Origin: an uncultured virus (IMG/VR IMGVR_UViG_3300049172_000101)
Lineage: Duplodnaviria > Heunggongvirae > Uroviricota > Caudoviricetes
Length of the DNA: 64,000 bases
Reading direction: 5' to 3' (one strand)
IMG/VR virus record: IMGVR_UViG_3300049172_000101
Within the stretch, counting starts at the first letter, position 1. Every line of letters begins with the position of its first letter. The notes beneath the pieces were generated by a model. That model was given only the letters and a program-made list of their open reading frames with translations, searched no databases and had not been told where the DNA came from. Positions 39,363 to 62,612 of this stretch are shown piece by piece. The position numbers and the translations under genes are program-made.

Positions 39363-40274
39363 CTAGCGGGTGATGAAGAAAGCGCGGAAGATGTTCTGGA
39401 TCTGCGTGTAGACGGCGCCGCCGGTGCCCTTACCGATCCGCACGTCTCCGGTGATCGTCACCGACCCGCCCGCCGGCACAGTGGCCTGGTACTGGAGCCA
39501 CCGCGAGGACTGCAGGTGGGAGTCGATGAGGGTGGTGTTGCCGTTGTTGAAGGTGAGCCACATCTCCTCGCCGTCCTGCCCGTAGGCGGCGGACGACCCC
39601 GGAGGCAGCGTGAAGTAGACGTCGACTTCGCGCGCAACGAAGAGGCGCGCGGACCGGCACGGGTCGGGGTTGGTGACCGTGACCGAGAACGTGTCCGCCG
39701 GCGTGATCAGGTCGTTTCCGGTCGGTACCGGCACGCTGGGGTAGAACCGCACGTCGAAGTGGTTGCTGTAGTCGGTGCGGGCGCGCGGCTCGCCGTACAG
39801 GCGCCCCGTGGCCGGGTCACAGGCCACGACACCGCCGTTCGTGGCGATGTCGCACGCATACGGCCAGGGCCCGGTGTCGGCGATGAGCGGGTCCTCGGTC
39901 GTTCCCGCGCCGGTGAGGCCGCAGCCCGCCACCAGCTCGGACGCCGGTGCGTACAGGCCGTCGGCGCCCACGGTGAGCGTGTTGCCGGCGGCGTCGGACA
40001 CGTCCGCGGCGAAGACGCCGGTGGCCGGGTCGTAGGTGATGCCGGGGCCGGCGGACAGGCACGGGCGGACCTGTGCGCAGTCCACCGTGCCACCGCCGCC
40101 GGGCGGCACGTACAGGCCGCCGGGGTCCAGGGTGAGTGCGTTGCCGGGGGCGTCGGACACGTCCGCGCCGACGATGTAGGGGTTGTCGGTGGATCCGGCC
40201 CCCTGTACCGAGATGCCGGGGCCTGGCAGGATCACGCAGTTGCAGGCGCCGCCGCCGCACTGGCACTTGGCCAT
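39363..40274 (-). CDS. Tail fibre / receptor-binding-like protein 2
   Basis: MAKCQCGG start; repeated ADVSDAxGNxL...GLY units; C-terminal beta-sandwich. Confidence 0.65.
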   Translation of the reverse strand: MAKCQCGGGACNCVILPGPGISVQGAGSTDNPYIVGADVSDAPGNALTLDPGGLYVPPGGGGTVDCAQVRPCLSAGPGITYDPATGVFAADVSDAAGNTLTVGADGLYAPASELVAGCGLTGAGTTEDPLIADTGPWPYACDIATNGGVVACDPATGRLYGEPRARTDYSNHFDVRFYPSVPVPTGNDLITPADTFSVTVTNPDPCRSARLFVAREVDVYFTLPPGSSAAYGQDGEEMWLTFNNGNTTLIDSHLQSSRWLQYQATVPAGGSVTITGDVRIGKGTGGAVYTQIQNIFRAFFITR

Positions 40275-40300
40275 TCTTCCCTCCGAAGGAGTGGAATTCG

Positions 40301-40318
40301 GCTCGGCCCAAAACCAGC
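40301..40318 (-). promoter_or_regulatory. Late-gene leader box, copy 1
   Basis: GCTGGTTTTGGGCCGAGC, 27 nt upstream of ATG 40274, 10 nt after TATGAT. Confidence 0.8.
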
Positions 40319-40374
40319 AACCGCCACAATCATATGGTTCATCGAGCACCGGTCCGACGACGCAGCGCAGGTCA

Positions 40375-40797
40375 TCACTGCACTGAGGTGTCCTCGTCCG
40401 TCGGGGTGTAGCGGGCCACTCGCGCGGCTACTTCCGCCGGCAGGAGCTTGACCAGCTCCAGGTATGTTTCCCGGGCTTGGGCTTGCTCCTGCGCGAGCTG
40501 CGCGGCCTCCCGGGCGGCTTGCTCTTCCTGCACGGCGGCTGTGGCCGCTTGGAACTCCTCTTCGGTGAGCCGTTCCGCGCCCTCCGGGGTGTGGACGTCT
40601 ACGTCTCCGAACAGGGCTACCGTCCGCAGTCGGCCGTCTGCCAGCCGGTAGTACCGCATCACCAGGGTCGGGGGAGTTTCCTGCGGCGGCTCCTGCGGCC
40701 ACGGGTCCGGCCACGGCTCGTCCGGCGCGGGCTCCTGCGGCTCGTCCGGCGTAGGTTCCTGCGGCTCGTCCACCGGCTCGCCTGTCGTGTCGTCCAC
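40375..40797 (-). CDS. Small partner of fibre protein 1
   Basis: Pro/Glu-rich N-terminus followed by a region paralogous to 39035..39352. Confidence 0.65.
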   Translation of the reverse strand: MDDTTGEPVDEPQEPTPDEPQEPAPDEPWPDPWPQEPPQETPPTLVMRYYRLADGRLRTVALFGDVDVHTPEGAERLTEEEFQAATAAVQEEQAAREAAQLAQEQAQARETYLELVKLLPAEVAARVARYTPTDEDTSVQ

Positions 40798-40799
40798 GC

Positions 40800-41642
40800 T
40801 CACTCCTGGGGGATAGAGAACAGCCACGCGCGCACGTTGGCTTGGATACGGGTGTACGTCGCGCCGCCGGCTCCGCGGTTCAGCGTGATCTGCATGGTGT
40901 GCGTGGTGGTGCCCCCCGCCGGCACTACCAGATTGCTCATCACGCTGTGCTGGCTGTGCCAGAGGTTGATGGCCCCGCTGCCGGTGTTCCGCAGGTAGTT
41001 CACGTCGTCGGCGCCGATGGCGGAGGATGCTGCCCCGCCGTCCGCCGGCAGGTTGAAAATGACGTCCACCTCTTGGTACAGCAGGGCGAACGCAGGCCGG
41101 CAGGGGTCCGGGTTGGGGATCTGCAGCGCGAGGGTGTCCACCACCGTCTCCGTCGACGGCACCGTCCGCGGGCTGGGCAGCAGTTCGTTGACGGACGCCT
41201 GCCGGAACGAGGACCGGAACGGGGGGTCCGTGCGCATCCGTCCGCTGACCGTGTCGCAGTAGACGTTTCCGCCGTTGGTGGCGATAGCGCACGTGTGCGG
41301 CCACGTCGCGGAGTTGACCCGCACCGGGCTGCCGCCCGAGCCGTCCCCGGTGAGCCCGCAGCCCGTGCTGACCGTGGCCGCACCCGTGGGCACGTACAAG
41401 CCGTTGGGGCGCCGCACCAGGTTGTTACCGGCGTCCTCCGACAGATCCACAGAGATCTGACCGGTGGCCGGGTTGTACGTGATCCCGGACCCGTTGGACA
41501 GGCACTGCCGGACCTCCGCGCAGTTGGTGACCGCGCTGACCTCATACGGATTGGCCGTGGAGCCGGAGCCGGTGACCACCGTGTTGTCGCCGGCCTGGAC
41601 GACGCAGTTGCACTGACTGCCGCCGCACTGGCACCTTGCCAT
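40800..41642 (-). CDS. Tail fibre / receptor-binding-like protein 1
   Basis: MARCQCGG start; full-length paralogue of 39363..40274. Confidence 0.65.
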   Translation of the reverse strand: MARCQCGGSQCNCVVQAGDNTVVTGSGSTANPYEVSAVTNCAEVRQCLSNGSGITYNPATGQISVDLSEDAGNNLVRRPNGLYVPTGAATVSTGCGLTGDGSGGSPVRVNSATWPHTCAIATNGGNVYCDTVSGRMRTDPPFRSSFRQASVNELLPSPRTVPSTETVVDTLALQIPNPDPCRPAFALLYQEVDVIFNLPADGGAASSAIGADDVNYLRNTGSGAINLWHSQHSVMSNLVVPAGGTTTHTMQITLNRGAGGATYTRIQANVRAWLFSIPQE

Positions 41643-41668
41643 GCTGCCTCCGGGGAGGAGTACCCACG

Positions 41669-41686
41669 GCCCGGCCCAGAACCAGC
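41669..41686 (-). promoter_or_regulatory. Late-gene leader box, copy 2
   Basis: GCTGGTTCTGGGCCGGGC, 27 nt upstream of ATG 41642, 9 nt after TAGACT. Confidence 0.85.
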
Positions 41687-41745
41687 AGCGCCCCAAGTCT
41701 AGGCGCTGGGCATGCGTCCGGGGGGCCGCGCGCCCGGCGGGGCAC

Positions 41746-42468
41746 TCATCCGTACAGCTCGAGTAGCACGATGCCCGGCTGGCCCTCCTCGCCCGCGACG
41801 CTGCTGCCGTCTCGAGCGAGTCCACCGCCCGCGCCGCCGCCGTAGCCGCGGCCCGCATTACTGCCGGTGGAGGCCCGCTGGATGCCGCCGTGCCCGAAGT
41901 AGGCTTCCCCGCCCACACCGGAAAGGCCGGTGGTGCCGTTGACGCGGAGCGCGCCGCCGCCCGCGCCGCCGCCCATGGCGATCTCCCCGGTGCCGGCATA
42001 CGGTCCGGCGATACCGGAGAAAGCGATCGGGGTGGTGCCGCCCGTCATGACTGCCGGCCCCCCGGCCCCGCCGTTGGCCGTGGCGAAGCCACCGAAGGAG
42101 CTCGCGCCGCCGTCTCCGCCGTCGCGGGCCGAGGTGCCCGCAGCACCACCCCGGCCAACGATCACTGTAGTGGTGGCGCCCAGGGAGGAGACGTCCACCA
42201 TCGTCTCCGAGTAGCCGCCGCCGGCGCCGCCGGGTTGCGCTGCGAGCTGGTCCTGTCCGGCTGACGCGCCTGCGGAGCCGCCGCCGCCTGCCTGCACGCG
42301 AGCCCGCACCCGGGCCAGCCACGGATAGAGCCCCTTTTGGAACGTGTACGTGCCCGGGTCCCGGTACACGACGACGTCCCGTAGGCCCATCGTGCCCTTC
42401 CTGAGGCACAGTTCGCCGTTATCCGAATCGACTACGAAGTAATCGTCACATACGCACGCTCTAGCCAC
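41746..42468 (-). CDS. Glycine-rich minor tail protein
   Basis: AGGGGS, GGAGGGY, GGASSFG and GYGGGAGG glycine-rich domain. Confidence 0.75.
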   Translation of the reverse strand: MARACVCDDYFVVDSDNGELCLRKGTMGLRDVVVYRDPGTYTFQKGLYPWLARVRARVQAGGGGSAGASAGQDQLAAQPGGAGGGYSETMVDVSSLGATTTVIVGRGGAAGTSARDGGDGGASSFGGFATANGGAGGPAVMTGGTTPIAFSGIAGPYAGTGEIAMGGGAGGGALRVNGTTGLSGVGGEAYFGHGGIQRASTGSNAGRGYGGGAGGGLARDGSSVAGEEGQPGIVLLELYG

Positions 42469-42496
42469 TTACGCCCCGCATGTCTGTTTCAGCGGT

Positions 42497-42514
42497 GCCC
42501 GGCCCAAAACCAGC
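42497..42514 (-). promoter_or_regulatory. Late-gene leader box, copy 3
   Basis: GCTGGTTTTGGGCCGGGC, 29 nt upstream of GTG 42468, 9 nt after TACCCT. Confidence 0.85.
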
Positions 42515-42542
42515 GACGCGAAAAGGGTAGCCGCGCCTGCGG

Positions 42543-43040: not shown

Positions 43041-44065
43041 CAGTCCTCCAGCTCACTGCTCGCCGGCGCGAGCGTGACTTGAACGCTCTCGCCGTCGCCG
43101 TCCTCTTCGACTTTCACCCCGGCGATCTTCAGCCGTTGCGTCAACGGCCGGCAGGTCGCCTGCGTCGCGACGTCGACGCACCAGCCGGGCACCAGCTTGG
43201 CGACGTCGACGGCCGCCTCCGGTGAAAGCGTCACCCGATCCGAGGAGAGGAAGACGGGCACCGGATAGTTCGCTGCGCGTCGGCTGCGCGCTGCGGCGAG
43301 CGCCGAGCCGCTCGTCTTGACGCTGGCCTCCTCGATGCTGCGCTCCAACAGCCCGTAGTAGGCATTTGCGCCGCCGGAGACGCCCTTCACGCCGCTCGCC
43401 TCGCCGCCGTGGACGATCACCCGCGTCGCGAGCTGCGAGCCGTCCTCGGCGACGATGAGCCCCTCGGGGAAGTCGGCGTCGGTCAAGACCCCGACGCTCG
43501 CCGACCACGTCTCCGGCATGAGCACGATCGTCGAGCCGACGGCCGTGTAGTCGAGACCCGTGTCCGCCAGGTCGCGCAGATGGTCACCGGTCTGCCCCAC
43601 GTCGCGCGTGTACTCGCGTCCCCCATCGACTCCGGCGAGCCCGACCACCTGCACGTCGTGCCCCGGATCGTCCGGAGCGAAGCCGTCCTCGATCAGCCAT
43701 GTCCCGATCGTCGTCAGATCCTCGTTCGCGAAGACGATCGAGTCGTGCGGCACACGGCGATCGAGCCAGACGAGAATGTCGGACGCCCAGAGTTCGACCA
43801 CTCCGAACGACCACTCGGCCTGGATGATCGGCCCTTCCCAGACGGGCACGCCGTCACGGGCGATCGCGAGTTTGTGCCGCCAGGTGCGGACGTTGCCGAG
43901 CGCGGCGCAGCAGTCGCCGTCCGGATGGATCACGACGTGCGCCGTCGAGACGTCGTCGAGGATCCGAGTCCACTCGACGGAGATCAGGACGTCGGCGGCC
44001 GTGATGATCGCCCCGTCACGATCGACGATCATCGCGGTATGCGTGCCGCAGCCGGCCGTAGCCAT
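43040..44065 (-). CDS. Minor tail / baseplate hub-like protein
   Basis: Second gene after the tape measure; W...L.I.RDGVPVWEGPI motif. Confidence 0.75.
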   Translation of the reverse strand: MATAGCGTHTAMIVDRDGAIITAADVLISVEWTRILDDVSTAHVVIHPDGDCCAALGNVRTWRHKLAIARDGVPVWEGPIIQAEWSFGVVELWASDILVWLDRRVPHDSIVFANEDLTTIGTWLIEDGFAPDDPGHDVQVVGLAGVDGGREYTRDVGQTGDHLRDLADTGLDYTAVGSTIVLMPETWSASVGVLTDADFPEGLIVAEDGSQLATRVIVHGGEASGVKGVSGGANAYYGLLERSIEEASVKTSGSALAAARSRRAANYPVPVFLSSDRVTLSPEAAVDVAKLVPGWCVDVATQATCRPLTQRLKIAGVKVEEDGDGESVQVTLAPASSELED

Positions 44066-44089
44066 GAAGCCCCCACGAGAGCGAAGGAG

Positions 44090-44107
44090 GCCCGGCCCAC
44101 AACCAGT
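44090..44107 (-). promoter_or_regulatory. Late-gene leader box, copy 4
   Basis: ACTGGTTGTGGGCCGGGC, 25 nt upstream of ATG 44065, 11 nt after TACTCT. Confidence 0.85.
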
Positions 44108-44131
44108 CGGCTACGAGCAGAGTACGGCGGC

Positions 44132-45475
44132 TCAGTAGCCGCGGCCGGTCACAGCGATCGAGACTGTCGCGTCGTCCGCCGGAGGCACGATCTCATCCGT
44201 CTCCAGGCAGACGACGAGCGTGCCGCAGTCGATCAAAGGCCAGGTCGGTGGCGTGCCGTCGCGGCCCCATACGTTCGTCGACGTCTCGCAGGAGCCGCCG
44301 CACTCGACGACGGCGCGGCCGATCTGCCCGTCGAGGGTGAGCGTCCCGGACGCGGGCACGAACCCGACTTCGAACACGGCGAGCGGATCGCATCGCTTCT
44401 TGTCCGCGACCTGCCCGGCCGTCAAGCCGGCGTCAGCGTCCGAGCGTTCATAGAGAGAGATCGTGAGCCGGCGCAGATCCTCACTGCCGGCGTAGACAGT
44501 GATCACCGGCACGTCCGAGGACCAGGCGGGTCGGCCCATCAAGTCAAGGTCGTAGCACTCCCGGTTCGTCGCGAGCGCCATGCAAAAGCACGACGACGGT
44601 GAGGAAGGCTGCGGAGGAGCCGGCGGCGCGCACGTCGGATCCGCGCAGGCGGCTCCGGCGTCCGGGCAGCCGCGCAGTCGGCAGCCGCCGGGCTGGCACT
44701 GCGGCACCCAGTCCGGGAGCGTGTTGCGGTGGATGCACCACTGGATGCATTCGCTGTCGTCGTCCGTCGGCACGTTGACGGAGAGGATCGGCACCTCGTC
44801 CGTCCACGCCCACGGCGTAGCCGCACTGAGCACGAACTCGACGGTGAGGATGTCGGCACCGGAGGTGCATTGTCCGGCCGCGCAGGAGCCGTCGCCCTTG
44901 CGTGCGGTGACGGTCGGTCCCTGCACGAGCGCGACGCGGCGGAACGTGCGCCGATGCCGCGCCAGGAAGTCCGCCGGCTCCTGGTCCTCGCCGGGGCAGC
45001 AGTTGAACATCTGGACGCAGTCGCCGCCGCACGCCGAGCCGGTGCAGCCCTGCAGGGCCTCGGCGAGCCAGTGGAGCCCGTACTCGACGGCGCAGCACGT
45101 CGCACCCAAGAGGATGCCGGTCACGGTGATCGTGCGGGGCTGCACGCGTGCGGGCCCGAATGCGCCGCCGCCGACGACTGCGTTCGTCACTGAGCGGCGC
45201 ACGGGGTAGTCGTCGACGCCGTCGAAGGCGAGCGGAAGGAAGCCGACGAACTGCGCCGACTCCGGCACGTCGACGTCGTACCAGGGCGCCGGACTGTCGG
45301 GGTCGTCCGGCGTCGTATACGGCGCATGATCGAAGACGTCGTTCGTCAGCGCCTCGCAGCCGCAGACGTCGTCGGCGCCCGACGTCAGCGGGGATCCGAC
45401 CGTCGCCAGGTAGGCGCGCAGACGGGCCGTGTTGATGACCTCAATACCGCCTACCGAAAGGAAGTCGGAGAGCAC
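44132..45475 (-). CDS. Distal tail (Dit-like) minor tail protein, Cys-rich
   Basis: First tail gene after the tape measure; RTITVTGIL, FVLSAATPW and TLTLDGQIGR motifs. Confidence 0.7.
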   Translation of the reverse strand: MLSDFLSVGGIEVINTARLRAYLATVGSPLTSGADDVCGCEALTNDVFDHAPYTTPDDPDSPAPWYDVDVPESAQFVGFLPLAFDGVDDYPVRRSVTNAVVGGGAFGPARVQPRTITVTGILLGATCCAVEYGLHWLAEALQGCTGSACGGDCVQMFNCCPGEDQEPADFLARHRRTFRRVALVQGPTVTARKGDGSCAAGQCTSGADILTVEFVLSAATPWAWTDEVPILSVNVPTDDDSECIQWCIHRNTLPDWVPQCQPGGCRLRGCPDAGAACADPTCAPPAPPQPSSPSSCFCMALATNRECYDLDLMGRPAWSSDVPVITVYAGSEDLRRLTISLYERSDADAGLTAGQVADKKRCDPLAVFEVGFVPASGTLTLDGQIGRAVVECGGSCETSTNVWGRDGTPPTWPLIDCGTLVVCLETDEIVPPADDATVSIAVTGRGY

Positions 45476-45499
45476 GAGCGGACTCCTGTGTCGGAGGAC

Positions 45500-45517
45500 G
45501 CCCGGCCCACAACCAGC
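45500..45517 (-). promoter_or_regulatory. Late-gene leader box, copy 5
   Basis: GCTGGTTGTGGGCCGGGC, 25 nt upstream of GTG 45475, 12 nt after TAAGCT. Confidence 0.85.
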
Positions 45518-45587
45518 AGCGGCGATCTCAGCTTACGGCTGGCTTCGTCGTAGCAGGCGTGGACATGCACCAAGCGACGACAGACCC

Positions 45588-45645
45588 AGTCAACGGGTTG
45601 ACTGGTAAACGGTTTGACCGGTAGGGTCTGGTCAAGTGCTTGACC
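45588..45645 (+). promoter_or_regulatory. Promoter with three 16-bp palindromic operators
   Basis: AGTCAACGGGTTGACT, GGTAAACGGTTTGACC and GGTCAAGTGCTTGACC; TTGACT-18 nt-TAGGGT. Confidence 0.78.
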
Positions 45646-46110: not shown

Positions 46111-48984
46111 TCACCCCAGGCTGTACGCCATGGCCATGCGGTGCATCACCCGGGATGCGGTAGCCTCCCCGTCGCCGGCCTCGACGATGGTGAACTGCGG
46201 GGCGATCGTCACCCCTCCCCCGCCGCTGCTGCCGTCCCCCGCGCTGTTCGCGCCGATGATGTTCATCAGCCCGGACCGCTCAGCCAGCTCACGTGCCCGC
46301 CGCGGCTTCGTCAGCGGGATGACGACCTCCGGCCCGTCGCCCTCGCCGATCAACGCCACCGTCGGCCCGGTGACGATCCCACCGTTCGCCAGCCCCGGGA
46401 TGGCGTTACGGATCGCGGACGGCAGGCTGTTGCGGATACGGGACGCGATGCTTCCGCCGATGTCGCCGATGGCATTCAGCAGCTTCCCCGGCAAATCCTG
46501 GAACATCGCCACCAGACTGGAGATGAGCGCGGACGCGGCACCGCGAGCCCGGGTGGCAGCGGTACGGATCGCACCGGCAATCCGGCCGCCCAGCCCGGAC
46601 AAGGCGCTGCCAACACGGCCGATCATGCCTCGAAACAGTCCCACCACCCGGGAGATGGCACCGGAGACGATGGACGACGCGCGGGACATCATCGCCGTGA
46701 ACGCGGCCGGCAGCCGACCGGCCAGCGTCGTGACAATGCCGGTCACGCGCGTGAACATCGTGGAGAAGAACGTGCCGACGCGGGTCAGAGCCCCACCGAC
46801 CCGCGCCGCCGCCGTCGTCACCGCCGCTCCCAGCCGACCCATCCATCCGATGACCGTGCTCGTCGCCCTGCTGATGGCGAAGAACTGCGCGATCACCGCG
46901 ACCAGCGGGGCAACGAGCTGAATCAACGGCGTGATCAGCCGCAGTACCCACGCGATGAGCTGCCCCAGCAGCGAGACGATCGGCGTCAGCAGCGGCGCCA
47001 GCTGCACGAAGACGTTGACGACCGGCATGAACGCCAGCGCCACCTGCACCAGCGCCGGAGCCAGCGCCGTCAGGATCGGCGACAGAGCCTGAACGATCGG
47101 AATGAGTGCCTGCCCGATTGCCATACCGAGCTGGAGAACCGGCTGGAGCAACTGCATGAGCACCGGAACGAGAGCTGTGAACACGGGCAGTAGAGCCGCG
47201 GACAGCGTCGCCACCAGTTGCGTGATGACCGGCACGAACTGCTGGAACGCCGCGATGATCGGCTGGATCAAAGGGGTGAGGGCGGCGAGGATCGGCGCGA
47301 GCGCGGACGCGAACGCTGCCGCGAGCTGCCCGACGATCGGCAGCAGCGGCGCCAGCGCGGCGAGGATCTGCCCGATCGCAGCGCCGAGCGGAGCGAGTGA
47401 TGGACCCACCGCGGCGAACGCCTGCGCGAGGCCCTGCGCGACCGCTTGAATCCCCGGCATGATCGCCGCGATCGCCGGACCGAGCGCATTGATCACACCG
47501 ACGATCGCCGGACCGAGGGCGGTGAGGATCGGACCGATCGCGGGAGCTATCGCACCTACCTGCGTCACCAGAGCAGCGAAGATCGGCCCGAGCTGCGCGG
47601 CGACCTGCGCCAGCGTCCGGAAGATGTTCGTCAGCGCCTCCTGACCGGCTGCGGAGTTGACGAACCGGTCAAAGCTGGCCGTGATCGTCTCCAGGTTCCC
47701 CAGGAACCCGCCCCCCGCAGCAGACGCGGCCTCGAAAACCCCGGAGAGAACGCCCCCGACGTTGGACGCGATCCGCCCGAGCTGCGCGAACACGTCCAGC
47801 GCCGACCGGACCGCTTCCACGGCCTGCCCAGAGGCCGCCATCGTGGACAGCCACGTCCCGAACTGCGCGCCGAGTTGCCCGATCTGCGCACCAACCCCCG
47901 CGCCGAACGCGGTAGCAATGGCGGCACCGATGTCCAAGAAGCCCTTTGCCAAAGGAGCCACAGCCGTCTGGAGACCCGAAGCGGCCTGCGCCGTACCCTG
48001 CAAAAGCGCCCGGATCGGTGCCGCGGCCTGCGCGGACGCAGCGAACTTCAGGCCCGCGGCAGCGGCCTCGCCGAACTCCGCAGCGATCCCGGCCAGGCCC
48101 GTGCGGAGCGGGCCCCCCAGGGCCTTCGCCGCGGAGGTGATCTGACCCTCGAACTGCTTAAAGAAGGAGTCTTGAACGCTGGTCCGTAGCTCCTCAAACG
48201 CCGGCTTAAGGGCGCGGATCTCCTTCGCCGCGGCCTGCGCGGCCGGGGACAGGTCCTCCAGGGCCTCCGTGAACTCCTCGGCCGTCCCGGTGAGCGCGGC
48301 CTCGAACGCCTCTTGGACGCCCAGTAGCGCGATCTTGAGGGCGCCTAGCGCGGCCTGCCACCCGAGGATGAGCGCTGGGTAGGCGGCGATGATCCCGGCC
48401 GCCGGAGCGAGCGCGGCCGTCAACGCGACCACGCCCTGCGCAGCACTTGCGGCGGCGATCCCGATCGCGCCGAAGCGCAGCAGCGAGCCGAGCATGGAGC
48501 CGACGCGGCCAGCGATCCCACCGAGACCGGCGAGTGCACTACTGAGCCGATCCGTATCGACGTCGGCATTCACCGTGACGTCCGGGGGGCTGTGGCCGCG
48601 GATCCGCGCGTCGAAGTCGCTCAGGTCCGGGACAACGCGGATGCTCACCTCTTCGCCGGCAAGCGCGGCACGCAGCCGCGTCATGAACTCGTCGAGATCC
48701 GGCGCGACGGGGATATTCAGTGAGTCAATCCCGCTCAGGCCAGCGAGGAGCTGCGCGTCGAAGCGCGAGAGATCCGGATCGACACGGACGCTCACCGACG
48801 CAGCGGAAAGACCCCGCTGAATGTTCTGCCGAATCCTGTCGCCGGCGTTGCGCGTCGCGCGGACTAGTGCGCGCTGGATACGGAGCCCGAGGTCGCGTGA
48901 CTCCTGGACGATCTCGCTGTCGTCGAGCGTGATCGTTATGCGGGCGGACCCGTAGTCCTCGCTGTCGCCGGCCGGAGTGGTCAC
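46111..48984 (-). CDS. Tape measure protein
   Basis: 957-aa Ala/Gly/Leu-rich helical protein after the tail chaperones; ANGGIVTGPTVALIGEGDGPEVVIPL C-terminal motif. Confidence 0.92.
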   Translation of the reverse strand: MTTPAGDSEDYGSARITITLDDSEIVQESRDLGLRIQRALVRATRNAGDRIRQNIQRGLSAASVSVRVDPDLSRFDAQLLAGLSGIDSLNIPVAPDLDEFMTRLRAALAGEEVSIRVVPDLSDFDARIRGHSPPDVTVNADVDTDRLSSALAGLGGIAGRVGSMLGSLLRFGAIGIAAASAAQGVVALTAALAPAAGIIAAYPALILGWQAALGALKIALLGVQEAFEAALTGTAEEFTEALEDLSPAAQAAAKEIRALKPAFEELRTSVQDSFFKQFEGQITSAAKALGGPLRTGLAGIAAEFGEAAAAGLKFAASAQAAAPIRALLQGTAQAASGLQTAVAPLAKGFLDIGAAIATAFGAGVGAQIGQLGAQFGTWLSTMAASGQAVEAVRSALDVFAQLGRIASNVGGVLSGVFEAASAAGGGFLGNLETITASFDRFVNSAAGQEALTNIFRTLAQVAAQLGPIFAALVTQVGAIAPAIGPILTALGPAIVGVINALGPAIAAIMPGIQAVAQGLAQAFAAVGPSLAPLGAAIGQILAALAPLLPIVGQLAAAFASALAPILAALTPLIQPIIAAFQQFVPVITQLVATLSAALLPVFTALVPVLMQLLQPVLQLGMAIGQALIPIVQALSPILTALAPALVQVALAFMPVVNVFVQLAPLLTPIVSLLGQLIAWVLRLITPLIQLVAPLVAVIAQFFAISRATSTVIGWMGRLGAAVTTAAARVGGALTRVGTFFSTMFTRVTGIVTTLAGRLPAAFTAMMSRASSIVSGAISRVVGLFRGMIGRVGSALSGLGGRIAGAIRTAATRARGAASALISSLVAMFQDLPGKLLNAIGDIGGSIASRIRNSLPSAIRNAIPGLANGGIVTGPTVALIGEGDGPEVVIPLTKPRRARELAERSGLMNIIGANSAGDGSSGGGGVTIAPQFTIVEAGDGEATASRVMHRMAMAYSLG

Positions 48985-49012
48985 CGGGCACCCTCACGAA
49001 GTCGTGAATGGT

Positions 49013-49030
49013 GCCCGGCCCAGAACCAGA
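49013..49030 (-). promoter_or_regulatory. Late-gene leader box, copy 6
   Basis: TCTGGTTCTGGGCCGGGC, 29 nt upstream of GTG 48984; no clear -10 hexamer. Confidence 0.8.
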
Positions 49031-49071
49031 CGGCGAGCGGCAGCACGCGCGGCGCTGCCTTGTTTCTCAGG

Positions 49072-49712: not shown

Positions 49713-49738
49713 AGGTCTTTCCCTGTCTCCCGTTCCTC

Positions 49739-49756
49739 GCCCGGCCCACAACCAGC
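49739..49756 (-). promoter_or_regulatory. Late-gene leader box, copy 7
   Basis: GCTGGTTGTGGGCCGGGC, 27 nt upstream of GTG 49712, 11 nt after TACCCT. Confidence 0.85.
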
Positions 49757-49808
49757 AGCGCACTACGAGGGTAGCCGCAGGTGCAGCAGGACAAGGAACG
49801 GAACGGCA

Positions 49809-53421: not shown

Positions 53422-53446
53422 GCCAGGAACCTCCTACTAGCAGGAG

Positions 53447-53464
53447 GCCCGGCCCAGAACCAGC
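53447..53464 (-). promoter_or_regulatory. Late-gene leader box, copy 8
   Basis: GCTGGTTCTGGGCCGGGC, 26 nt upstream of TTG 53421, 12 nt after TAAACT. Confidence 0.85.
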
Positions 53465-53620
53465 GGCTCGCAAATCAGTTTATCGGTCGGCGATCAGCGT
53501 CAGACCGCCGTCGTCCTCCCGCAGGCTGATCCCGGAGCCCTCAAGGGCGTACTGCACGCGGGGCCTCCTTTCACGTGAGGAGGGCCGCGCCCGGCCTGGA
53601 GGACCGGGCGCGGCTCCGGG

Positions 53621-57763: not shown

Positions 57764-59592
57764 AGGTCCACTCCTGTCGTCCAGTTGATCGTTATGGCCC
57801 CGGTGGCGGCCTCGATGGTCAGCGGCCCGATGAGCCGCACGTCCACGTCCCGGGTGATGGACCACTGCGCGGTCTCGCCGTCGTGCAGGGTGCTCGTGCC
57901 GTCGGCGGTGGTGATGGTGCCGGTGCCGCCCCAGGCGGTCGCCTGCACGGCGCGCAGCGTCCCGTGCGCGGCGGCGGTCCAGCTCTGGCCGGCGGCGAGC
58001 TCGACGCGGTGCGCCTGCACGCCGATGGGCCGCTCGGGCACCGCGTCCGGGGAGTCGCAGTCCACCGGCGCGGTGGGGGTGTACGGCCCCGACAGGTCAC
58101 ACAGGTAGGTGCCGAGGCTGGTGACGTTGCCTGCGCAGTCCACGCCGAGCAGCTCGGTATACGTGACGTCCGCGATGCCGTCGCCGTTGGTGTCGTCGCA
58201 GCGCTCGGCCTGGACCAGGTTGGTCACCGGGCAGTCGTCGGGGCCGCAGACGCCCACGGTGCCCGTCACCCGGTAGGGGGTGACGCCGTCCAGGGTGACG
58301 TCCGCGGTGTCGAGGACGTAGCCGCTGCACGTGGTGGTGATCTTCCGCAGGAACGGCGTCGACTGCCCGTCGGCCGTGACGTCGCACAGCATCTCGAACG
58401 TGCTGCCGCACGGCTCCGGGGCCGGGGCCTCGCCGTCGTCGGTGTCGCAGTCGATCGGCGCTACGGGCTTGTAGACGTCCGCCAGGTCGCACGTGCGGGT
58501 GGCGAGGCTGGTGACATTGCCTTCGCAGTCCACCGCGAGGAGCTCGATGTACGTAGTGTCGGGCTGGCCGTCGCCGTCGGTGTCGTCGCAGCGCTCCGCC
58601 TGGATGATGTTCTGGACGTCGCAGCCGGTGTCGCATACGTCGACGGTGCCGCTCGGGGTGTACGCGGCGCCGTCGAGCGTGTAGTCCGTGTGGCCGGTGA
58701 TCTGGCCGTTCTCGTCGCGCATGTAGTCGCGCAGGATGCGGCGCACGCTGCCGTCCGGCCGCGTCTCGCACAGCACGACGAGATCCTTCTCGGGTTGCGC
58801 GACGCCAGCCGGGCAGGTCGTGATCTCGCCCTGTGGCGTATAGGGCTGGCCCGTCGTCGCGTCGACGATGCGGACGCCGGACACGCCGCCGTCCGGGCTG
58901 TAGGTGTACTCGATCAGGACGAGTCCGTACACGGTGCCCGTGCCGGGGTCGACGTCGCAGAACGTGCCGGTCGTTGACACGCTGCGCGGCGTGCCGCACG
59001 CGACTACGCCTGCCGGGGGCTGGCCGGCCGAGTAGGCGCCCGTCGCAAGGTTCAGCCAGCCCTCTTGCCGGATCGCGCCGTCGCAGTCGCGGGTGACGAG
59101 GACGGCGATAGGGGTGCCGTCGGCGAGGCATAGGCCGAGCGTCGCGACGGGGGCGTGTTGCTCGGCGCAGTCCGATCCGCCGTCGCACGAGCGGACGGTG
59201 CCGATGACGACGTGCGGGGTTTCGCCGTCGACTTCTACGTCGATGTAGGCGGCGGTGCCGTTCGACAGGAACGTGAACTTTCGCAGGAACGGGCGGCCGG
59301 AGTCGTCGCAGAGCAGTTCGGTGTGGCACTGCATGGTGCCGTGCTCGCAGTCGACTGGCGAGACGGGCGTGTATGGCTCGGACGGGTCGCCCTGGTAGGT
59401 GAGGACGAGCTGGCTGGTGCCGTCCTGCTGGATGCACCACAGCTCGCTGTAGGTGGTGTCGGGCAGGCCGTCACCGGTTGTGTCGTCGCAGCGCAGGACG
59501 CAGGTTGTGGTGACGCACGTGGGGGGGCATTCGCATTCGCCTCCGCCGCCTCCCCCGGCGCCGCAGGTGCAGCCGCTGTAGGAGATGGCCAT
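57760..59592 (-). CDS. Cys-rich repeat virion protein (610 aa)
   Basis: Three RCDDT.GDG..D.TY.EL repeats plus the same LCD/FLR repeats as the downstream gene. Confidence 0.8.
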   Translation of the reverse strand: MAISYSGCTCGAGGGGGGECECPPTCVTTTCVLRCDDTTGDGLPDTTYSELWCIQQDGTSQLVLTYQGDPSEPYTPVSPVDCEHGTMQCHTELLCDDSGRPFLRKFTFLSNGTAAYIDVEVDGETPHVVIGTVRSCDGGSDCAEQHAPVATLGLCLADGTPIAVLVTRDCDGAIRQEGWLNLATGAYSAGQPPAGVVACGTPRSVSTTGTFCDVDPGTGTVYGLVLIEYTYSPDGGVSGVRIVDATTGQPYTPQGEITTCPAGVAQPEKDLVVLCETRPDGSVRRILRDYMRDENGQITGHTDYTLDGAAYTPSGTVDVCDTGCDVQNIIQAERCDDTDGDGQPDTTYIELLAVDCEGNVTSLATRTCDLADVYKPVAPIDCDTDDGEAPAPEPCGSTFEMLCDVTADGQSTPFLRKITTTCSGYVLDTADVTLDGVTPYRVTGTVGVCGPDDCPVTNLVQAERCDDTNGDGIADVTYTELLGVDCAGNVTSLGTYLCDLSGPYTPTAPVDCDSPDAVPERPIGVQAHRVELAAGQSWTAAAHGTLRAVQATAWGGTGTITTADGTSTLHDGETAQWSITRDVDVRLIGPLTIEAATGAITINWTTGVDL

Positions 59593-59975
59593 CAGCTATC
59601 CCCCTCGGGGTGGGCTTGGCGGCGGTGGGTGTTCCGGCCGCGTTCGGTGGTGAAGGTGCGCGGGCACCGGTCACAGGCGTAGGCGTCGTCGCTGGTGCGG
59701 GCGTCCTCCAGCGGCGCGAAGTCCGAACTCGGTCCGGCCCCGAATGCTTCGGGGGTGGCGACGCCCAGGAGTTCCTGGCCCGCGTCCTCGACGGGTGAGC
59801 GGTAGCGGTGGCCGTCGACGAGGGAGCCGATCAGCAGCTCCTCCGGCATGTGCGTGAACAGGTCCGGGGGGACGGCGAACTCGCTGTGGGAGCAGGTGGC
59901 TACCTGCGGGGTCTGGGCGGTCGCCCACCGGGCGAACGCTGCACGCCGCTCGGGCGCGGGCCGCACTTTGATCAT
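59592..59975 (-). CDS. Small protein with C-terminal C2H2 zinc finger
   Basis: YACDRCPRTFTTERGRNTHRRQAH. Confidence 0.7.
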   Translation of the reverse strand: MIKVRPAPERRAAFARWATAQTPQVATCSHSEFAVPPDLFTHMPEELLIGSLVDGHRYRSPVEDAGQELLGVATPEAFGAGPSSDFAPLEDARTSDDAYACDRCPRTFTTERGRNTHRRQAHPEGDS

Positions 59976-59977
59976 CG

Positions 59978-60814
59978 TCAGCAGCACGTCGAGATCCTCA
60001 CTGCCGCCGCCTCACAGCACGCCACCTCGATCACGGAAGTGCGCTCGGCGAGGACGTACCGGTCATTCAGGCGGGTGTCGATGCTCCCGGCCTCGGTGGG
60101 CGGGATGATGTCGAGCGGCCCGCGCCGCACCCGCACGGGCCCGGTGATGTAGAGCCAGGCCTCGCCGTCGGGTGCTTGGGTGCAGGTCGGCCCGCCGACG
60201 TTCGTGGCGTAGCCGGCGCCCATCACCACGCCGTTGCCCATCAGCGTCTCGGGGCATTGGGTGTCGCGGGTGCGGGTGACGACGTTGCAGCAGCCCAGCA
60301 GCGCTGCCGCGCCGGCAGGGATGTGCAGGATGCCTTCGCCGCCGTAGTGCTCGGCCAGCCAGCCCTCCAGCGCGGCGATGCCCTGCGCGGCCGGCAACGC
60401 CCCCGACGCGGGGGTGAGGTCGTTGTCGGCGGCCATCGTGCACAGGGCGTTCATCATGAACCAGGCCTCGAGGGCGCGCTGCTCGCCCATGCGGAGAGTT
60501 TCCGCAGCGTGCTCGACGGCCTCGTCGTAGGTCATGCCGAACGTGGAGCAGGTGGATCCGGCGTACACGGTGACCGGGTCGAATTCGCATACCCCGGGCC
60601 GGTCGAAGATTTTCGACGGGGGGTTGGGCACGGTGGGGGGCGGGCAGTCCCGCTCCCACGTGTGGGTCTCCGCGCACGACAGCGGCACGAACTGGGTGCC
60701 GTTCAGCTCGTGCAGATCGGTGACGTCTACGACCTCTACGCACCCGCCGAGGAGGCCGTAGGGGCTGGGATTGCCGCGGATGGGGGTTACGGTCTTGCGC
60801 ATCCCTCCCGCCAT
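59978..60814 (-). CDS. Second capsid protein (putative pentamer protein)
   Basis: Follows the major capsid gene; YGL, P.TVYA...C, E.RALE, G.LH and T..GN.V..G.GY motifs recalled from actinophage pentamer proteins. Confidence 0.65.
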   Translation of the reverse strand: MAGGMRKTVTPIRGNPSPYGLLGGCVEVVDVTDLHELNGTQFVPLSCAETHTWERDCPPPTVPNPPSKIFDRPGVCEFDPVTVYAGSTCSTFGMTYDEAVEHAAETLRMGEQRALEAWFMMNALCTMAADNDLTPASGALPAAQGIAALEGWLAEHYGGEGILHIPAGAAALLGCCNVVTRTRDTQCPETLMGNGVVMGAGYATNVGGPTCTQAPDGEAWLYITGPVRVRRGPLDIIPPTEAGSIDTRLNDRYVLAERTSVIEVACCEAAAVRISTCC

Positions 60815-60887
60815 CTGCCTCACGCCCTCTCGCTGTTCGGGCGCAGCCTCGGCCGGCAGATGGCCGAGGCTGCGCGCAAGGGGTGGG

Positions 60888-62534
60888 TTAGGCGGTCGGG
60901 CAGGCGACGGCGGCGCGCGGTCCGACGGAGCCGTCGGCGCACACCGGGATGGTGATGGCGCGAGCCTGGGGGCCGCGGTAGATGAGCGCGTTGCAGGACT
61001 CGAAGAAGAGGGCGGTCATGTCGTTGGTGCGCAGCAGGGTGCTGTCGTGCACCACACCGAGGTTGATCTCCGGGCCGCGGCCCATCTGGAACGCACCGGC
61101 CGGGTAGAGCAGGGCCTGCACGGTGGCGGGCCAGGCGGTGGCGGGGGTGGTGTTGCCGATCTGGGTGGGGACGGCCGGGGGCAGGCCCTTGACCCACTGG
61201 ACGCGGACGCCGAGGTCGGCGAAGGCCTGCTCGACGCAGTTCTGGTTGAGGTCGCAGACGTTGACGCCGTCACGGCGGGCGATGTCGGCGAGGAACATGT
61301 TGCGCGCCCAGTAGGGCAGGACCAGTTCGAGGCCGATCCGCTCGCACAGGCTGAAGCGCTCGGTCATGTCGGCGATCTGCAGGGCGAGCGCCCCGTACAC
61401 GGCGGAGAACGACGCGAAGCTGGTGGCGGTGGTGACGGGCGTGGCCCGGGTGAGGGCCTGCTGGTACATGGCGGCCTTGAGACGCATCTCGTAGGCGACC
61501 ATGGCGCGCCGAATATAGAAGGTGGTCAGCTCGGGGAAGAACCGCTGGGAGAGGATGCCGGCCTGGATGCAGGCGCCGTAGGCGGTGCAGCGGACCTCGA
61601 CCGGGTCCACACAGGGGATCTTGAAGCACGGCTTGGTGGGGTCACCGTCGACCGCGCTGATGTCGTCGGCTTCGGTCCACACCCACGACATCGCGGTGAC
61701 GTCCAGCTCGGGCGTCATGTAGTAGCGCAGCCCGCCCCGGGACAGGTTGAGTTCGGGCAGGTCCCACAGGTTGTCCGGGCAGGAGATCTCGGTGAAGTCG
61801 TAGACGGTCTCCGAGGGGGCGCACCAGCCGCCCGACGCGACGAGGTCGCCGCCCTTCAGACGCTTCTGGTCCGCGGCCCGCATCAGCTTGGTGGTGCCCT
61901 CCTCCGGAGACCCCGCATCGTTGATGATCAGGTCCTGGGAGAACGGCAGCTGATACGACGCGGCGTAGGCCTTGCCGCCGCTCGCGACGAGCCCGGCGAC
62001 CTTGGTGACGGACTCGGTCAGCCCGTCCATGTCCAGGGGCGCGCCGAGAGTGGCGCCGGGGACCTCGGCGGAGGCGACGATCGTGACGGCCGGGGTGCCG
62101 GACTGGGGCATCGGCTGGCGCGGCTGCCGCTCCCGCACCGTGGCGAGGCTGATGATCGGACGCCGCACGACGGCGGAGGACGCGGCGACCTCCTCGACGA
62201 CCGGCTCCTCCTCGGTGGCGGGCTCGGCCGGCTCGTCCGTCTCGGCGGCGGGGCTGTCGTCGGTGTCGGTGACGGCTTCCTCGCCGAGGACCTGGGCGGC
62301 GAGTTCGTCGAGTTCGGCGACGGCGGCCTGGGCGGCTTCGACGCGCTGGGTCTGCTCGGCGCGCAGCGCTTCGATGCCGGTGGCCAGCTCGCGCAGGGCG
62401 GGCAGGTCTTCGGTGGTGAGGTTGGGGTCCTGGCGCCGGGCGTTGAACGCCTCGACGGCGGCGGCGAGGGTGGCGTCGAGGTCCTCGCTGCTGAGGCTGG
62501 TGAAGTCGTCGGGAAGCTGGAAGGGCTCGGACAT
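60888..62534 (-). CDS. Major capsid protein (hexamer type) with N-terminal scaffold-like region
   Basis: Coiled-coil/acidic N-terminus, then LVASGGWCAPSETVYD...LPE....RGG...FPEL; AGGAG RBS. Confidence 0.87.
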   Translation of the reverse strand: MSEPFQLPDDFTSLSSEDLDATLAAAVEAFNARRQDPNLTTEDLPALRELATGIEALRAEQTQRVEAAQAAVAELDELAAQVLGEEAVTDTDDSPAAETDEPAEPATEEEPVVEEVAASSAVVRRPIISLATVRERQPRQPMPQSGTPAVTIVASAEVPGATLGAPLDMDGLTESVTKVAGLVASGGKAYAASYQLPFSQDLIINDAGSPEEGTTKLMRAADQKRLKGGDLVASGGWCAPSETVYDFTEISCPDNLWDLPELNLSRGGLRYYMTPELDVTAMSWVWTEADDISAVDGDPTKPCFKIPCVDPVEVRCTAYGACIQAGILSQRFFPELTTFYIRRAMVAYEMRLKAAMYQQALTRATPVTTATSFASFSAVYGALALQIADMTERFSLCERIGLELVLPYWARNMFLADIARRDGVNVCDLNQNCVEQAFADLGVRVQWVKGLPPAVPTQIGNTTPATAWPATVQALLYPAGAFQMGRGPEINLGVVHDSTLLRTNDMTALFFESCNALIYRGPQARAITIPVCADGSVGPRAAVACPTA

Positions 62535-62562
62535 TGCCGTGACTCCTGGTGTGATCACAGGA

Positions 62563-62580
62563 GCCCGGCCCAAAACCAGC
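62563..62580 (-). promoter_or_regulatory. Late-gene leader box, copy 9
   Basis: GCTGGTTTTGGGCCGGGC, 29 nt upstream of ATG 62534, 10 nt after CACAAT. Confidence 0.85.
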
Positions 62581-62612
62581 GGCGTATTCGATTGTGGTGA
62601 AAGGAATCTTAG

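Follow-up and report, generated by a model that had tools for sequence, protein, structure and literature searches.

What does a short sequence box that recurs ahead of the virion genes of an uncultured tailed phage do? A search of the window (the whole 64,000-nucleotide stretch of DNA analyzed here, from IMG/VR record IMGVR_UViG_3300049172_000101) with the pattern GCTGGTTNTGGGCCGGGC, allowing at most 3 mismatches, recovered nine sites, at 40301, 41669, 42497, 44090, 45500, 49013, 49739, 53447, and 62563. These are the nine that an earlier note on this DNA had listed, and the window has no further site. All nine lie on the minus strand, which is, as the note had said, the coding strand of the virion genes. 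The chance expectation in the window is 0.61 sites, and nine were reached in 0 of 100 shuffles. A covariance model run on both strands of the window scored the nine boxes at 25.6 to 40.1 bits. Because its next best place on either strand reached only 14.3 bits, an antisense copy of the box is taken to be absent from the window; the pattern search agrees, and the note had found none either. The box ends 24 to 28 nt from the start codon in all nine units (Table 1), confirming a position shortly upstream of virion gene starts. A (T/C)AnnnT hexamer ends 9 to 12 nt 5' of the box in eight of nine units, also as described earlier. The exception is the tape-measure copy, which has no hexamer at that distance; an additional hairpin separates it from its TAACCT, 38 nt upstream. 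The box is restricted to late genes. Its description as a switch for all late genes was too wide, as only 9 of roughly 25 late genes in the window carry the unit; from the capsid gene through the lysis genes, each gene is downstream of some unit. The window belongs to a Streptomyces-type phage in which nine capsid and tail genes start with one compact unit, a predicted minimal promoter plus a small conserved RNA hairpin.

Table 1 Late-gene units and the candidate partner gene in the window. Hexamers (predicted -10 elements), hairpins, and helices are listed in 5' to 3' order of the transcript; bits are covariance-model scores of the box.
Feature	Coordinates	Strand	Composition
Unit 1, major capsid protein gene (60888-62534)	62532..62596	-	CACAAT 62596-62591, 21-nt hairpin 62583-62563, anti-SD/SD helix, ATG 62534; 40.1 bits
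Unit 2, major tail protein gene (52735-53421)	53419..53482	-	TAAACT 53482-53477, hairpin 53467-53447, CCUCCU/AGGAGG helix, TTG 53421; 37.5 bits
Unit 3, tail assembly chaperone gene (49287-49712)	49710..49773	-	TACCCT 49773-49768, hairpin 49759-49739, GTG 49712; 37.2 bits
Unit 4, tape measure gene (46111-48984)	48982..49074	-	TAACCT 49074-49069, extra GC hairpin, insertion-type hairpin (GCCG+U+CUGG...) 49034-49013, GTG 48984; 26.2 bits
Unit 5, Dit-like tail protein gene (44132-45475)	45473..45535	-	TAAGCT 45535-45530, hairpin 45520-45500, CUCC/GGAG helix, GTG 45475; 36.7 bits
Unit 6, minor tail (hub) gene (43040-44065)	44063..44124	-	TACTCT 44124-44119, insertion-type hairpin 44111-44090, ATG 44065; 25.6 bits
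Unit 7, glycine-rich tail fiber gene (41746-42468)	42466..42529	-	TACCCT 42529-42524 overlapping upstream GC hairpin, box hairpin 42517-42497, GTG 42468; 35.2 bits
Unit 8, Cys-rich N-terminus protein gene (40800-41642)	41640..41701	-	TAGACT 41701-41696, hairpin 41689-41669, CUCC/GGAG helix, ATG 41642; 35.7 bits
Unit 9, second Cys-rich N-terminus protein gene (39363-40274)	40272..40334	-	TATGAT 40334-40329, hairpin 40321-40301, ATG 40274; 28.6 bits
131-aa late-module protein (candidate partner)	59592..59987	-	small alpha/beta N-domain + C-terminal C2H2 zinc finger

Covariation indicates that the box, together with three more bases (GCY), is a self-paired 21-nt bulged hairpin. Its layout is g-c-y / G1 C2 U3 G4 G5 U6 / 4-nt loop / G11 G12 C13 C14 G15 G16 G17 C18, with pairs -3:18, -2:17, -1:16, 2:15, 4:14, 5:13, and 6:11. 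In an alignment of 101 distinct rows, 99.7% of 707 cells are paired and both sides have changed in four of the seven pairs (25 cells), a level that 0 of 500 shuffles reached, with pairing of at most 61% in slid registers; since the structure was derived from the same sequences that were counted, it is somewhat favored, and these shuffle and slide controls are only part of an answer. G.U cells number 114, and 2 of the 707 cells are non-standard, neither being A.C or C.A. These counts and the compensatory changes support an action of the box as RNA, on the sense strand, for which the predicted fold is also the stronger (-19.9 kcal/mol, antisense -16.0 kcal/mol). An alternative fold suggested by thermodynamics was rejected, having no double change and 19 broken cells. 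Insertions map to the bulged G1 (21 distinct rows). Throughout the 101 distinct rows, and in phages from two host orders, G1, U3, G4G5/C13C14, and G11G12 are invariant; from Streptomyces to Gordonia phages the stems, bulges, and two G-C pairs stay constant, and the loop varies (UNUG, UUCG, GYUA, and CGAG). The hairpin of unit 9, whose gene is followed by the lysis genes, is a GUU...GAGC variant in which the pairs are kept. The free toehold that the earlier note placed in the box 5' half is contradicted by the covariation, which pairs that half with the 3' half. Beyond the 21-mer and the -10 element no conserved sequence was found, and Rfam covariance models (window positions 37000-64000, E up to 1) gave only two chance eukaryotic matches, neither at a box. 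With a nearest-neighbor energy of only -1.4 kcal/mol and a cost of about 13 kcal/mol when it is enforced in the model ensemble, the bulged hairpin alone would not be expected to dominate folding.

The box is accompanied by a promoter signal. For 155 of 219 distinct instances of the box, a TAnnnT hexamer ends 9 to 13 nt 5' of it, compared with 0.6 per position elsewhere, and 160 of 169 hexamers are of the type TAnnCT. No -35 signal was found upstream of the hexamers, and their spacing to the box is not fixed, ranging from 9 to 13 nt and beyond. Hexamer enrichment and the lack of a -35 would suit a putative HrdB-like, sigma-70-type, -10-only promoter, from which the transcript start is predicted. 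Because the box is just downstream of a -10-type hexamer, it should be at the 5' end of the mRNA, as had been suggested. It follows directly from the sequence statistics that putative -10-only promoters (TAnnCT, no -35) precede nine virion genes or gene groups and that the hairpin is predicted at the transcript 5' end or no more than a few bases from it. The hairpin of tape-measure leaders does not lie at the 5' terminus. The locus was found in no RNA run.

The element extends well beyond this phage. The box was found in at least 223 IMG/VR stretches and in Streptomyces and Kitasatospora prophages, and variants of it are carried by lytic phages of Streptomyces and by about 50 phages of Gordonia. 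Streptomyces phage TurkishDelight has nine copies, at the same genes as the window. Among 80 titled genome loci, all 17 with full units are from Streptomyces or Kitasatospora; the remaining exact matches, which fall within genes of unrelated bacteria, were set aside as chance. The strong covariance-model matches of four host genomes are grouped in one prophage each. Each phage has 5 to 10 units, the tape-measure gene always has the hairpin, and carriers are found among lytic as well as temperate phages whose early genes are unrelated. The element is thus common to many Streptomyces and Gordonia phages and is apparently an undescribed control element.

In 196 of 212 leaders the start codon lies 22 to 33 nt 3' of the box, and predicted folds suggest that the ribosome site is often paired. 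The SD has a mean unpaired probability of 0.25 in the leaders versus 0.36 in shuffled sequences (p 3e-12); box-less TurkishDelight genes are less paired, at 0.40-0.48. It is predicted to be mostly paired in 55% of 200 leaders, versus 24.5% of shuffled sequences and 21-32% of box-less TurkishDelight genes. Within TurkishDelight alone, no significant difference separates the box genes from the rest (6 vs 87 genes, p 0.30). The second helix over the SD is variable and gene-specific, and none was predicted in the unit 3 leader. With the box hairpin enforced, 46.5% of the 200 leaders still occlude the SD, including 85 of the 110 occluded without constraint. The claim of the earlier note that a stem occludes the RBS therefore holds in part: pairing exceeds that of shuffles and box-less genes, but 82 of the 200 leaders have no predicted occlusion. 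On these predictions, occlusion of the RBS is no more than a tendency and concerns about half of the leaders.

A similar qualification applies to placing the 3' half of the box in the RBS stem. GCCC, which can pair with the box 3' end, stands before the start in 61 of 202 leaders (23.5 expected), and pairing between the box 3' end and the pre-start region is possible in 20 of 20 tape-measure leaders; in unit 4 a predicted alternative helix, GGGCACC/GGUGCCC, spans the leader. Minimum free energy (MFE) folds of the capsid, major-tail, tape-measure, and Dit leaders of the window join the box 3' half to the pre-start region, about 65% of 202 MFE folds give G15-C18 a downstream partner, and the stems quoted in the earlier note reappear in those of the window. 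SD access, however, is predicted to depend on the box 3' half in only 25 of 200 leaders. Since this pairing and the box hairpin are mutually exclusive, their competition could form a switch in about 30% of leaders. As a whole, the earlier interpretation keeps its 5' position, RNA action, and SD pairing and loses its free-toehold anatomy.

The best explanation overall, which we hold tentatively and at slightly below even confidence, combines a promoter-proximal 21-nt hairpin with post-transcriptional control acting on the first gene in each unit. The hairpin may be read as a recognition module because it keeps its stems, bulges, and two G-C pairs unchanged and varies in its loop; it would serve one conserved partner, either a protein or the host transcription or translation machinery. 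A gene-specific second helix would hold the SD in about half of the leaders, and in about a third the box 3' strand would pair with the GCCC before the start, giving a long helix that closes over the ribosome site. By binding and fixing the box hairpin, in a logic like that of Com/mom, this putative partner would keep or make the ribosome site accessible, and it could also protect the 5' end. Neither an early regulator nor a repressor common to the box-bearing phages was found, nor a candidate regulator common to all hairpin-bearing phages. The zinc-finger protein encoded at 59592-59987 is a weak lead. It comprises the small alpha/beta domain, an acidic linker, and the C2H2 finger, in place of which some relatives (lytic) carry an arginine-rich tail; Gordonia phage Phlop has the hairpin and lacks this protein.

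The same position could suit an RNA that controls antitermination or pausing, similar to lambda nut/boxB with N, HK022 put, or the LoaP leader hairpin, in which the nascent hairpin, alone or with a host or phage factor, would modify RNA polymerase and let it read through GC-rich hairpins between late genes. Such hairpins often adjoin or overlap the -10 of the next unit, e.g., upstream of units 1 and 7, and the predicted 3' end of the upstream hairpin is -6 to +3 nt from the hexamer in 147 of 169 instances. The box hairpin is predicted to be the first RNA from each late promoter, tandem hairpins occur, the tape-measure gene with its long transcript always carries one, and a put-type RNA acting in cis needs no phage protein, consistent with the missing common early regulator. 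We nevertheless consider this reading unlikely. The stability of the upstream hairpins does not exceed that of shuffled sequence (mean z -0.56), a scan of the coding strand found no terminators, and there is no conserved boxA-like second element; moreover, read-through would make one promoter enough, yet each phage has several, and the tight start-codon spacing and enriched SD pairing are left without a role. A stem-loop that shields late mRNAs against decay dependent on the 5' end (RNase E/J), or that marks cleavage separating cistrons, is distinctly unlikely. It would need no dedicated regulator, which suits the unrelated early genes of the lytic and temperate carriers, and the predicted 5'-terminal position and tetraloop-type caps (e.g., UUCG and GNNA-like loops) are consistent with it. 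However, a stabilizer would need no fixed sequence, whereas the bases listed above are invariant; the energy model makes the hairpin weak, and in tape-measure leaders it is not terminal.

In its original form, the model of the earlier note has the box 5' half as a single-stranded toehold through which a trans-acting RNA or protein opens an RBS stem made from the 3' half. The MFE folds of the four window leaders, the downstream pairing of G15-C18, the tape-measure class, and the enrichment of GCCC before starts all favor it, but the covariation within the box, the lack of an antisense copy in the window, and an occlusion that is mostly independent of the box make it very unlikely. Even more improbable is a DNA-level site that occupies +1 to +21 of each late promoter and serves as operator or activator site for a DNA-binding protein of phage or host, in the manner of the asymmetric stoperators of cluster A mycobacteriophages. 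Multiple asymmetric copies in a single orientation beside promoters, in a phage whose late module encodes a C2H2 zinc-finger protein, would suit such a site, but the G.U and non-standard counts argue for RNA rather than DNA-palindrome drift, pairs change on both sides with identity at those positions not kept, spacing to the -10 varies, and the box position is linked to the start codon.

Several known systems resemble parts of the preferred arrangement of hairpin and post-transcriptional control. In the mom leader of phage Mu, a translation-inhibition stem covers the ribosome site, and Com, a small zinc-finger protein with one target gene, binds a neighboring hairpin; the fold then shifts and translation becomes possible. 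The stem predicted over the ribosome site and the candidate zinc-finger protein of the late module would be similar; here, however, 5 to 10 units are present per phage, the conserved part is itself a covarying hairpin, and predicted occlusion affects only about half of the leaders. Lambda nut consists of boxA and a boxB hairpin bound by the arginine-rich N protein, and HK022 put RNA (about 70 nt, two stem-loops) acts in cis on RNA polymerase. Both share with our element a small conserved hairpin in the first RNA from a phage promoter (predicted here), and N recalls the arginine-rich tail in some relatives of the candidate protein. Unlike nut, the element has no conserved boxA partner; unlike put, it has one conserved 21-nt hairpin and a gene-specific second helix; and unlike either, it has many copies tied to start codons and a terminator signal not above chance. 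Coat-protein operators of MS2 and PP7 are single bulged hairpins over a start codon in RNA genomes and serve as repressor sites. The proposed likeness is a small hairpin recognized by bulge and stem rather than overall sequence, with a structural-module protein as the binder and translation as the output, although our hairpin belongs to dsDNA phages, has many copies, and precedes the start by about 27 nt.

Among DNA sites, stoperators of cluster A mycobacteriophages are bound genome-wide by the phage repressor (L5 gp71) and are asymmetric, with one orientation relative to transcription. The box is likewise a multi-copy, asymmetric intergenic site in one orientation, but has RNA-type covariation and is confined to late genes. 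Stoperators are mentioned in PMC5559632 and PMC3203893. According to the latter, the SAS of cluster K mycobacteriophages is a 13 bp sequence, GGGATAGGAGCCC, that lies 3-7 bp from the start, includes the SD, and precedes non-structural genes only; SAS/ESAS are asymmetric, one-orientation repeats in 11-19 copies just upstream of gene starts, absent from the host and suspected of a role in translation, and the ESAS inverted repeats are said not to support RNA pairing (PMC3203893). On that account, our element is similarly asymmetric, one-oriented, multi-copy, and upstream of actinobacteriophage gene starts, and differs from SAS in its sequence, its distance from the start (22-33 nt), its place behind a -10, its virion genes, and its RNA covariation.

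A more specific form of the preferred reading, which we regard as a long shot, makes the hairpin the operator of a post-transcriptional late regulon: the virion-module protein encoded at 59592-59987 would bind every late leader, fix the box hairpin against the GGGC:GCCC helix, and tune capsid and tail translation to the assembly state. If true, this would be a genome-wide counterpart, in dsDNA phages, of Com/mom or the coat-protein operators.

Nine copies of a repeated leader motif (the box, GCTGGTT...) lie in front of virion genes, each as part of a unit that combines a -10-type hexamer, the box, a leader with the Shine-Dalgarno (SD) sequence and the start codon. All nine sites listed in an earlier note (40301, 41669, 42497, 44090, 45500, 49013, 49739, 53447 and 62563) were recovered, against a chance expectation of 0.61, and every copy is on the coding strand, the minus strand of the window. 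As that note had also reported, a hexamer (T/C)AnnnT ends 9-12 nt upstream of eight of the nine boxes, and there is no antisense copy: with a covariance model the nine boxes score 25.6-40.1 bits and nothing else in the window exceeds 14.3 bits on either strand. The start codon follows the box by 24-28 nt. The units precede the capsid, major tail, chaperone, tape measure, Dit, hub and three fibre-type genes. About 16 other late genes have no unit, so the suggestion that the units serve all late genes holds only insofar as some unit lies upstream of each gene below the capsid gene.

The G+C content of the window is 65-72%, and a siphophage virion module occupies the minus strand from 64000 down to about 38000. 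The left part contains integrases, HTH regulators, a DNA methylase, nucleases and a recombination directionality factor; the IMG/VR virus record identical to 51-37766 has no box in it. Two tyrosine-integrase genes lie 3 kb apart in mid-phage, between the early and late arms, and enclose a dodecin gene and an HTH gene. The nearest named relatives are Streptomyces phages; the capsid protein is 54% identical to its TurkishDelight counterpart and 48-49% identical to those of phages of the cluster BG type, TP1604 among them. Two large proteins (1414 and 610 aa) both belong to PHROG 18824 and have no Pfam match; TurkishDelight has a 'glycosyltransferase' at the matching position. The endonuclease gene in the tail operon looks like a homing-endonuclease insertion. 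The 13 sequencing runs for 40200-50000 are all soil-metagenome DNA.

Features of the window, by position
Feature	Position	Strand	Remark
C-5 cytosine DNA methylase	14050-15336	-
Tyrosine integrase	31182-32465	+
Tyrosine integrase	35707-36630	+
Tail-fibre-region protein	39363-40274	-	cysteine-rich N-terminus
Tail-fibre-region protein	40800-41642	-	cysteine-rich N-terminus
Tail-fibre-region protein	41746-42468	-	cysteine-rich N-terminus
Tape measure	46111-48984	-
HNH/T5orf172-type endonuclease	49809-50942	-	between adaptor genes and chaperone unit
Major tail protein	52735-53421	-
Large protein, no assigned function	53621-57865	-	1414 aa; between head and tail genes
Large protein, no assigned function	57760-59592	-	610 aa; between head and tail genes
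Zinc-finger protein	59592-59987	-
Major capsid protein	60888-62534	-
Portal/MuF-protease fragment	virion module	-
Head-tail adaptors, tail chaperone, Dit-like and hub proteins, fibres, amidase endolysin	virion module	-

The promoter in front of the box was characterized from 219 distinct box instances. Directly upstream, the three bases are G in 94%, C in 97% and C or T in 94%, which brings the conserved element to 21 nt. In 155 of the 219 instances the end of a TAnnnT lies 9-13 nt upstream of the box, compared with 0.6 occurrences per position elsewhere, and 160 of 169 chosen hexamers are of the type TAnnCT. No conserved -35 signal was found upstream of the box. The established distance from a -10 hexamer to the start site is 6-8 nt. 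Judged by this spacing, the first base of the 21-mer should be no more than about 3 nt from the transcript start. In tape-measure-type leaders the hexamer is more distant, with an additional hairpin or second box in between. As terminators, upstream hairpins gave no signal above chance. In TP1604, gp04, gp09, gp14, gp20 and gp27 are preceded by a second, box-less type of promoter-like unit: TAnnCTGG, then a short leader rich in C and A, then GAAGGG, some 30 nt ahead of the start.

Box variants were collected from 38 related virion loci and the named phages with up to four mismatches allowed, and their changes are correlated between positions. In an alignment of 112 25-mers (101 distinct), 99.7% of 707 cells are paired in the structure ..(((.(.(((....).)))))).., which was derived from the same sequences used to count its pairing. 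Numbering the box from 1 to 18 and the three upstream bases from -3 to -1, two-sided changes occur at four of the seven pairs (25 cells in all), with variants G:C/A:U/G.U at -3:18, C:G/U:A/G:C/U.G at -2:17, C:G/U.G/U:A at -1:16 and C:G/A:U at 2:15. None of 500 column shuffles reached the observed pairing and covariation, and with the partners slid along no more than 61% of cells pair. G.U accounts for 114 cells, and only two are non-standard, neither A.C nor C.A. In another 21 distinct rows a single A or U is inserted precisely at the bulged G1, and the lower stem GCC...GG(C/U) is retained. Most copies have a UNUG loop; variants have UUCG, UNAG, GYUA or CGAG, with the closing pair changing from U.G to C:G. 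Whole leaders are more stable in sense than in antisense (-19.9 vs -16.0 kcal/mol, p 1e-28); the variable region by itself shows no such excess, and mononucleotide shuffling of the variable part gives a weak whole-leader MFE z (mean -0.57).

Taken together, the covariation, insertion site, loop variants, G.U cells and sense-strand stability point to an element that acts as RNA of the sense strand, not as a DNA palindrome. RNAfold favours another fold when given the box in isolation, and this one shows no double change and 19 broken cells. The covariation also does not bear out the toehold proposed in the earlier note, in which the 5' half of the box is free and its 3' half is held in an RBS-occluding stem; the box is instead a self-folded hairpin. 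The energy model gives this bulged hairpin only -1.4 kcal/mol, so its formation in vivo, if it occurs, would probably depend on a partner or on kinetic trapping. Tandem hairpins 6-25 nt apart occur before major-tail or tape-measure genes in several relatives' loci (18516-18572 and 22907-22950 in L226; also L042, L066, L076, L005 and L208), and the upstream copy is frequently the more changed one.

The start codon is 22-33 nt past the box in 196 of 212 leaders. Access to the SD was estimated from partition-function folds of 200 leaders, with the sequence upstream of the SD shuffled as a control. The mean SD-unpaired probability is 0.25 in leaders and 0.36 after shuffling (p 3e-12), and values below 0.25 are found in 55% of real leaders versus 24.5% of controls. 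For box-less genes of TurkishDelight the average is 0.40 over 87 genes and 0.48 over the 34 whose gap is 40 nt or more; in TurkishDelight alone only six box genes are scorable, and their difference from box-less genes is not significant. With the box hairpin enforced, the SD is still occluded in 46.5% of leaders. It is occluded with or without the enforced hairpin in 85 of the 200 and in neither case in 82, compared with 25 occluded only when the 3' half of the box is free to pair and eight only when the hairpin is enforced. Given these counts, RBS occlusion as modelled is a real tendency and not a universal property, and the predicted occluding partner is mostly a gene-specific anti-SD segment.

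Pairing between the box and the start region would form a competing helix. In all 20 tape-measure leaders, box bases G15-C18 and the next three bases can pair with those directly preceding the start codon, and one of these pairs covaries (A:U in 12, C:G in 6). Within 14 nt upstream of the start, GCCC, which complements the last four bases of the box, is present in 61 of 202 leaders (shuffles 23.5, sd 4.3, maximum 35) and in 12 of 101 box-less TurkishDelight genes. The GCCC helix excludes the hairpin's lower stem and vice versa, and this predicted alternative offers a possible switch in roughly a third of leaders. To that extent the 3' half of the box may enter a pre-start stem, as first proposed; the rest of the structure does not stand.

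At least 223 IMG/VR stretches contain the exact 17-mer, and the 80 matches listed fall on 34 contigs, mostly with several co-oriented copies each. Prokaryote genomes (one per species) gave 135 matches in 134 stretches, most of them lone chance matches inside genes of unrelated bacteria. The GCY extension and hexamer accompany 31 of the 135; the 17 of these among the 80 titled loci all belong to Streptomyces (15) or Kitasatospora (2), and the reading frames downstream start like the window virion proteins. Exact matches in other bacteria, within coding sequence and without extension or hexamer, were set aside. In four host genomes strong model matches (at least 32 bits) are confined to one region each, with 5-10 per prophage and nothing above 28.5 bits in the rest of the chromosome, which gives no sign there of strong host copies outside prophages. 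The box is present at the same genes in the cultured temperate Streptomyces phage TurkishDelight, with nine copies, two as tandem pairs. Variant boxes precede capsid, major-tail and tape-measure genes in the lytic Streptomyces phages TP1604, Mischief19 and phiSAJS1 and in Gordonia phage Phlop, whose variant occupies four intergenic places per record in about 50 Wizard-type Gordonia phage records. Among 203 classified leaders of relatives, the most frequent gene class (56) encodes tail-fibre-region proteins with cysteine-rich N-termini. Such N-termini (MAKCQCGGGACNC, MARCQCGGSQCNC, VARACVCDDYF) are found in the window and in many IMG/VR loci. Rfam has no matching family, and literature searches by sequence strings and by words found no published description; the passages of a Gordonia phage paper on Wizard, intergenic regions and repeats (PMC5559632) do not mention the element. 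Among published actinophage repeats, SAS/ESAS of cluster K come closest, but they have another sequence, position and gene class and are described as lacking RNA pairing (PMC3203893).

A shared regulator was sought by comparing all window ORFs with TurkishDelight and TP1604 by tblastn and blastp. Only virion proteins and the C-5 DNA methylase are common to all three; a DnaQ-type exonuclease and a small membrane protein are shared with TurkishDelight besides. This comparison found no common early regulator, which leaves as partner a host component conserved in Streptomyces and Gordonia, a virion-module protein, or nothing, the RNA being purely cis-acting. The methylase is found at 31679-32623 in TP1604 (L362) and as gp123 in TurkishDelight (L227); C-5 methylases are common in these phages, and GGCC and CCGG occur within the box.

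Among virion-module proteins, the zinc-finger protein stands out: a conserved alpha/beta N-domain of 65 residues is followed by an acidic linker that varies and a C2H2 finger that is strictly conserved (C..C.R.F.T.RGR..H.RQ.H); an arginine- and lysine-rich tail replaces the finger in the TP1604, Mischief19 and phiSAJS1 homologues. The family member is gp19 in TurkishDelight and gp15 in TP1604. Across the family (L362 16437-16859, L226 15636-16400, L402 11905-12258, L403 11268-11699), these nucleic-acid-binding-type ends are interchangeable, C2H2 in temperate and Arg/Lys-rich in lytic BG-type phages. Tail type does not track loop type, an idea dropped because two relatives' records (G007, G008) combine the C2H2 form with GYUA-loop hairpins. 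Of the 38 loci, 15 encode the N-domain no more than 10 kb from the tail gene, and two more show the finger alone at their cut edge; among ten further box-bearing records searched whole, nine have the N-domain and the one without it is only 39% complete. Its 99 database relatives are all unnamed Streptomyces-type proteins. Foldseek returned C2H2 fingers only (E >=0.4) and VIA-align generic ferredoxin-like matches to the N-domain (Z <=5), so the fold of the protein gives no clue to a function. No homologue is detectable in hairpin-bearing Phlop, and since the gene is syntenic with the capsid gene its co-occurrence with the box says little. Such tails would suit a DNA-binding head protein just as well. 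We consider the protein an improbable hairpin partner, kept as a lead.

Our preferred reading is post-transcriptional control through a partner that binds the hairpin; alternatively, the hairpin may act in antitermination or pausing, or protect the 5' end. The original interpretation is retained in placing the element in the 5' leader, at the RNA level and with a tendency to cover the RBS, and is replaced in its toehold anatomy and universal occlusion, correcting a tempting simple toehold-switch reading. The element gives a handle on how actinobacteriophages switch on and balance their late genes. It is a short, strictly conserved RNA, backed by covariation, and each phage has it on 5-10 of its virion transcripts; the carriers include both temperate and lytic phages and span two actinobacterial orders. 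It is a candidate new RNA family, and the hairpin provides a defined RNA bait for a partner search, with TurkishDelight, TP1604 and the Wizard-type Gordonia phages as readily cultured carriers. The compact promoter-plus-leader cassette could also serve expression control in Streptomyces.
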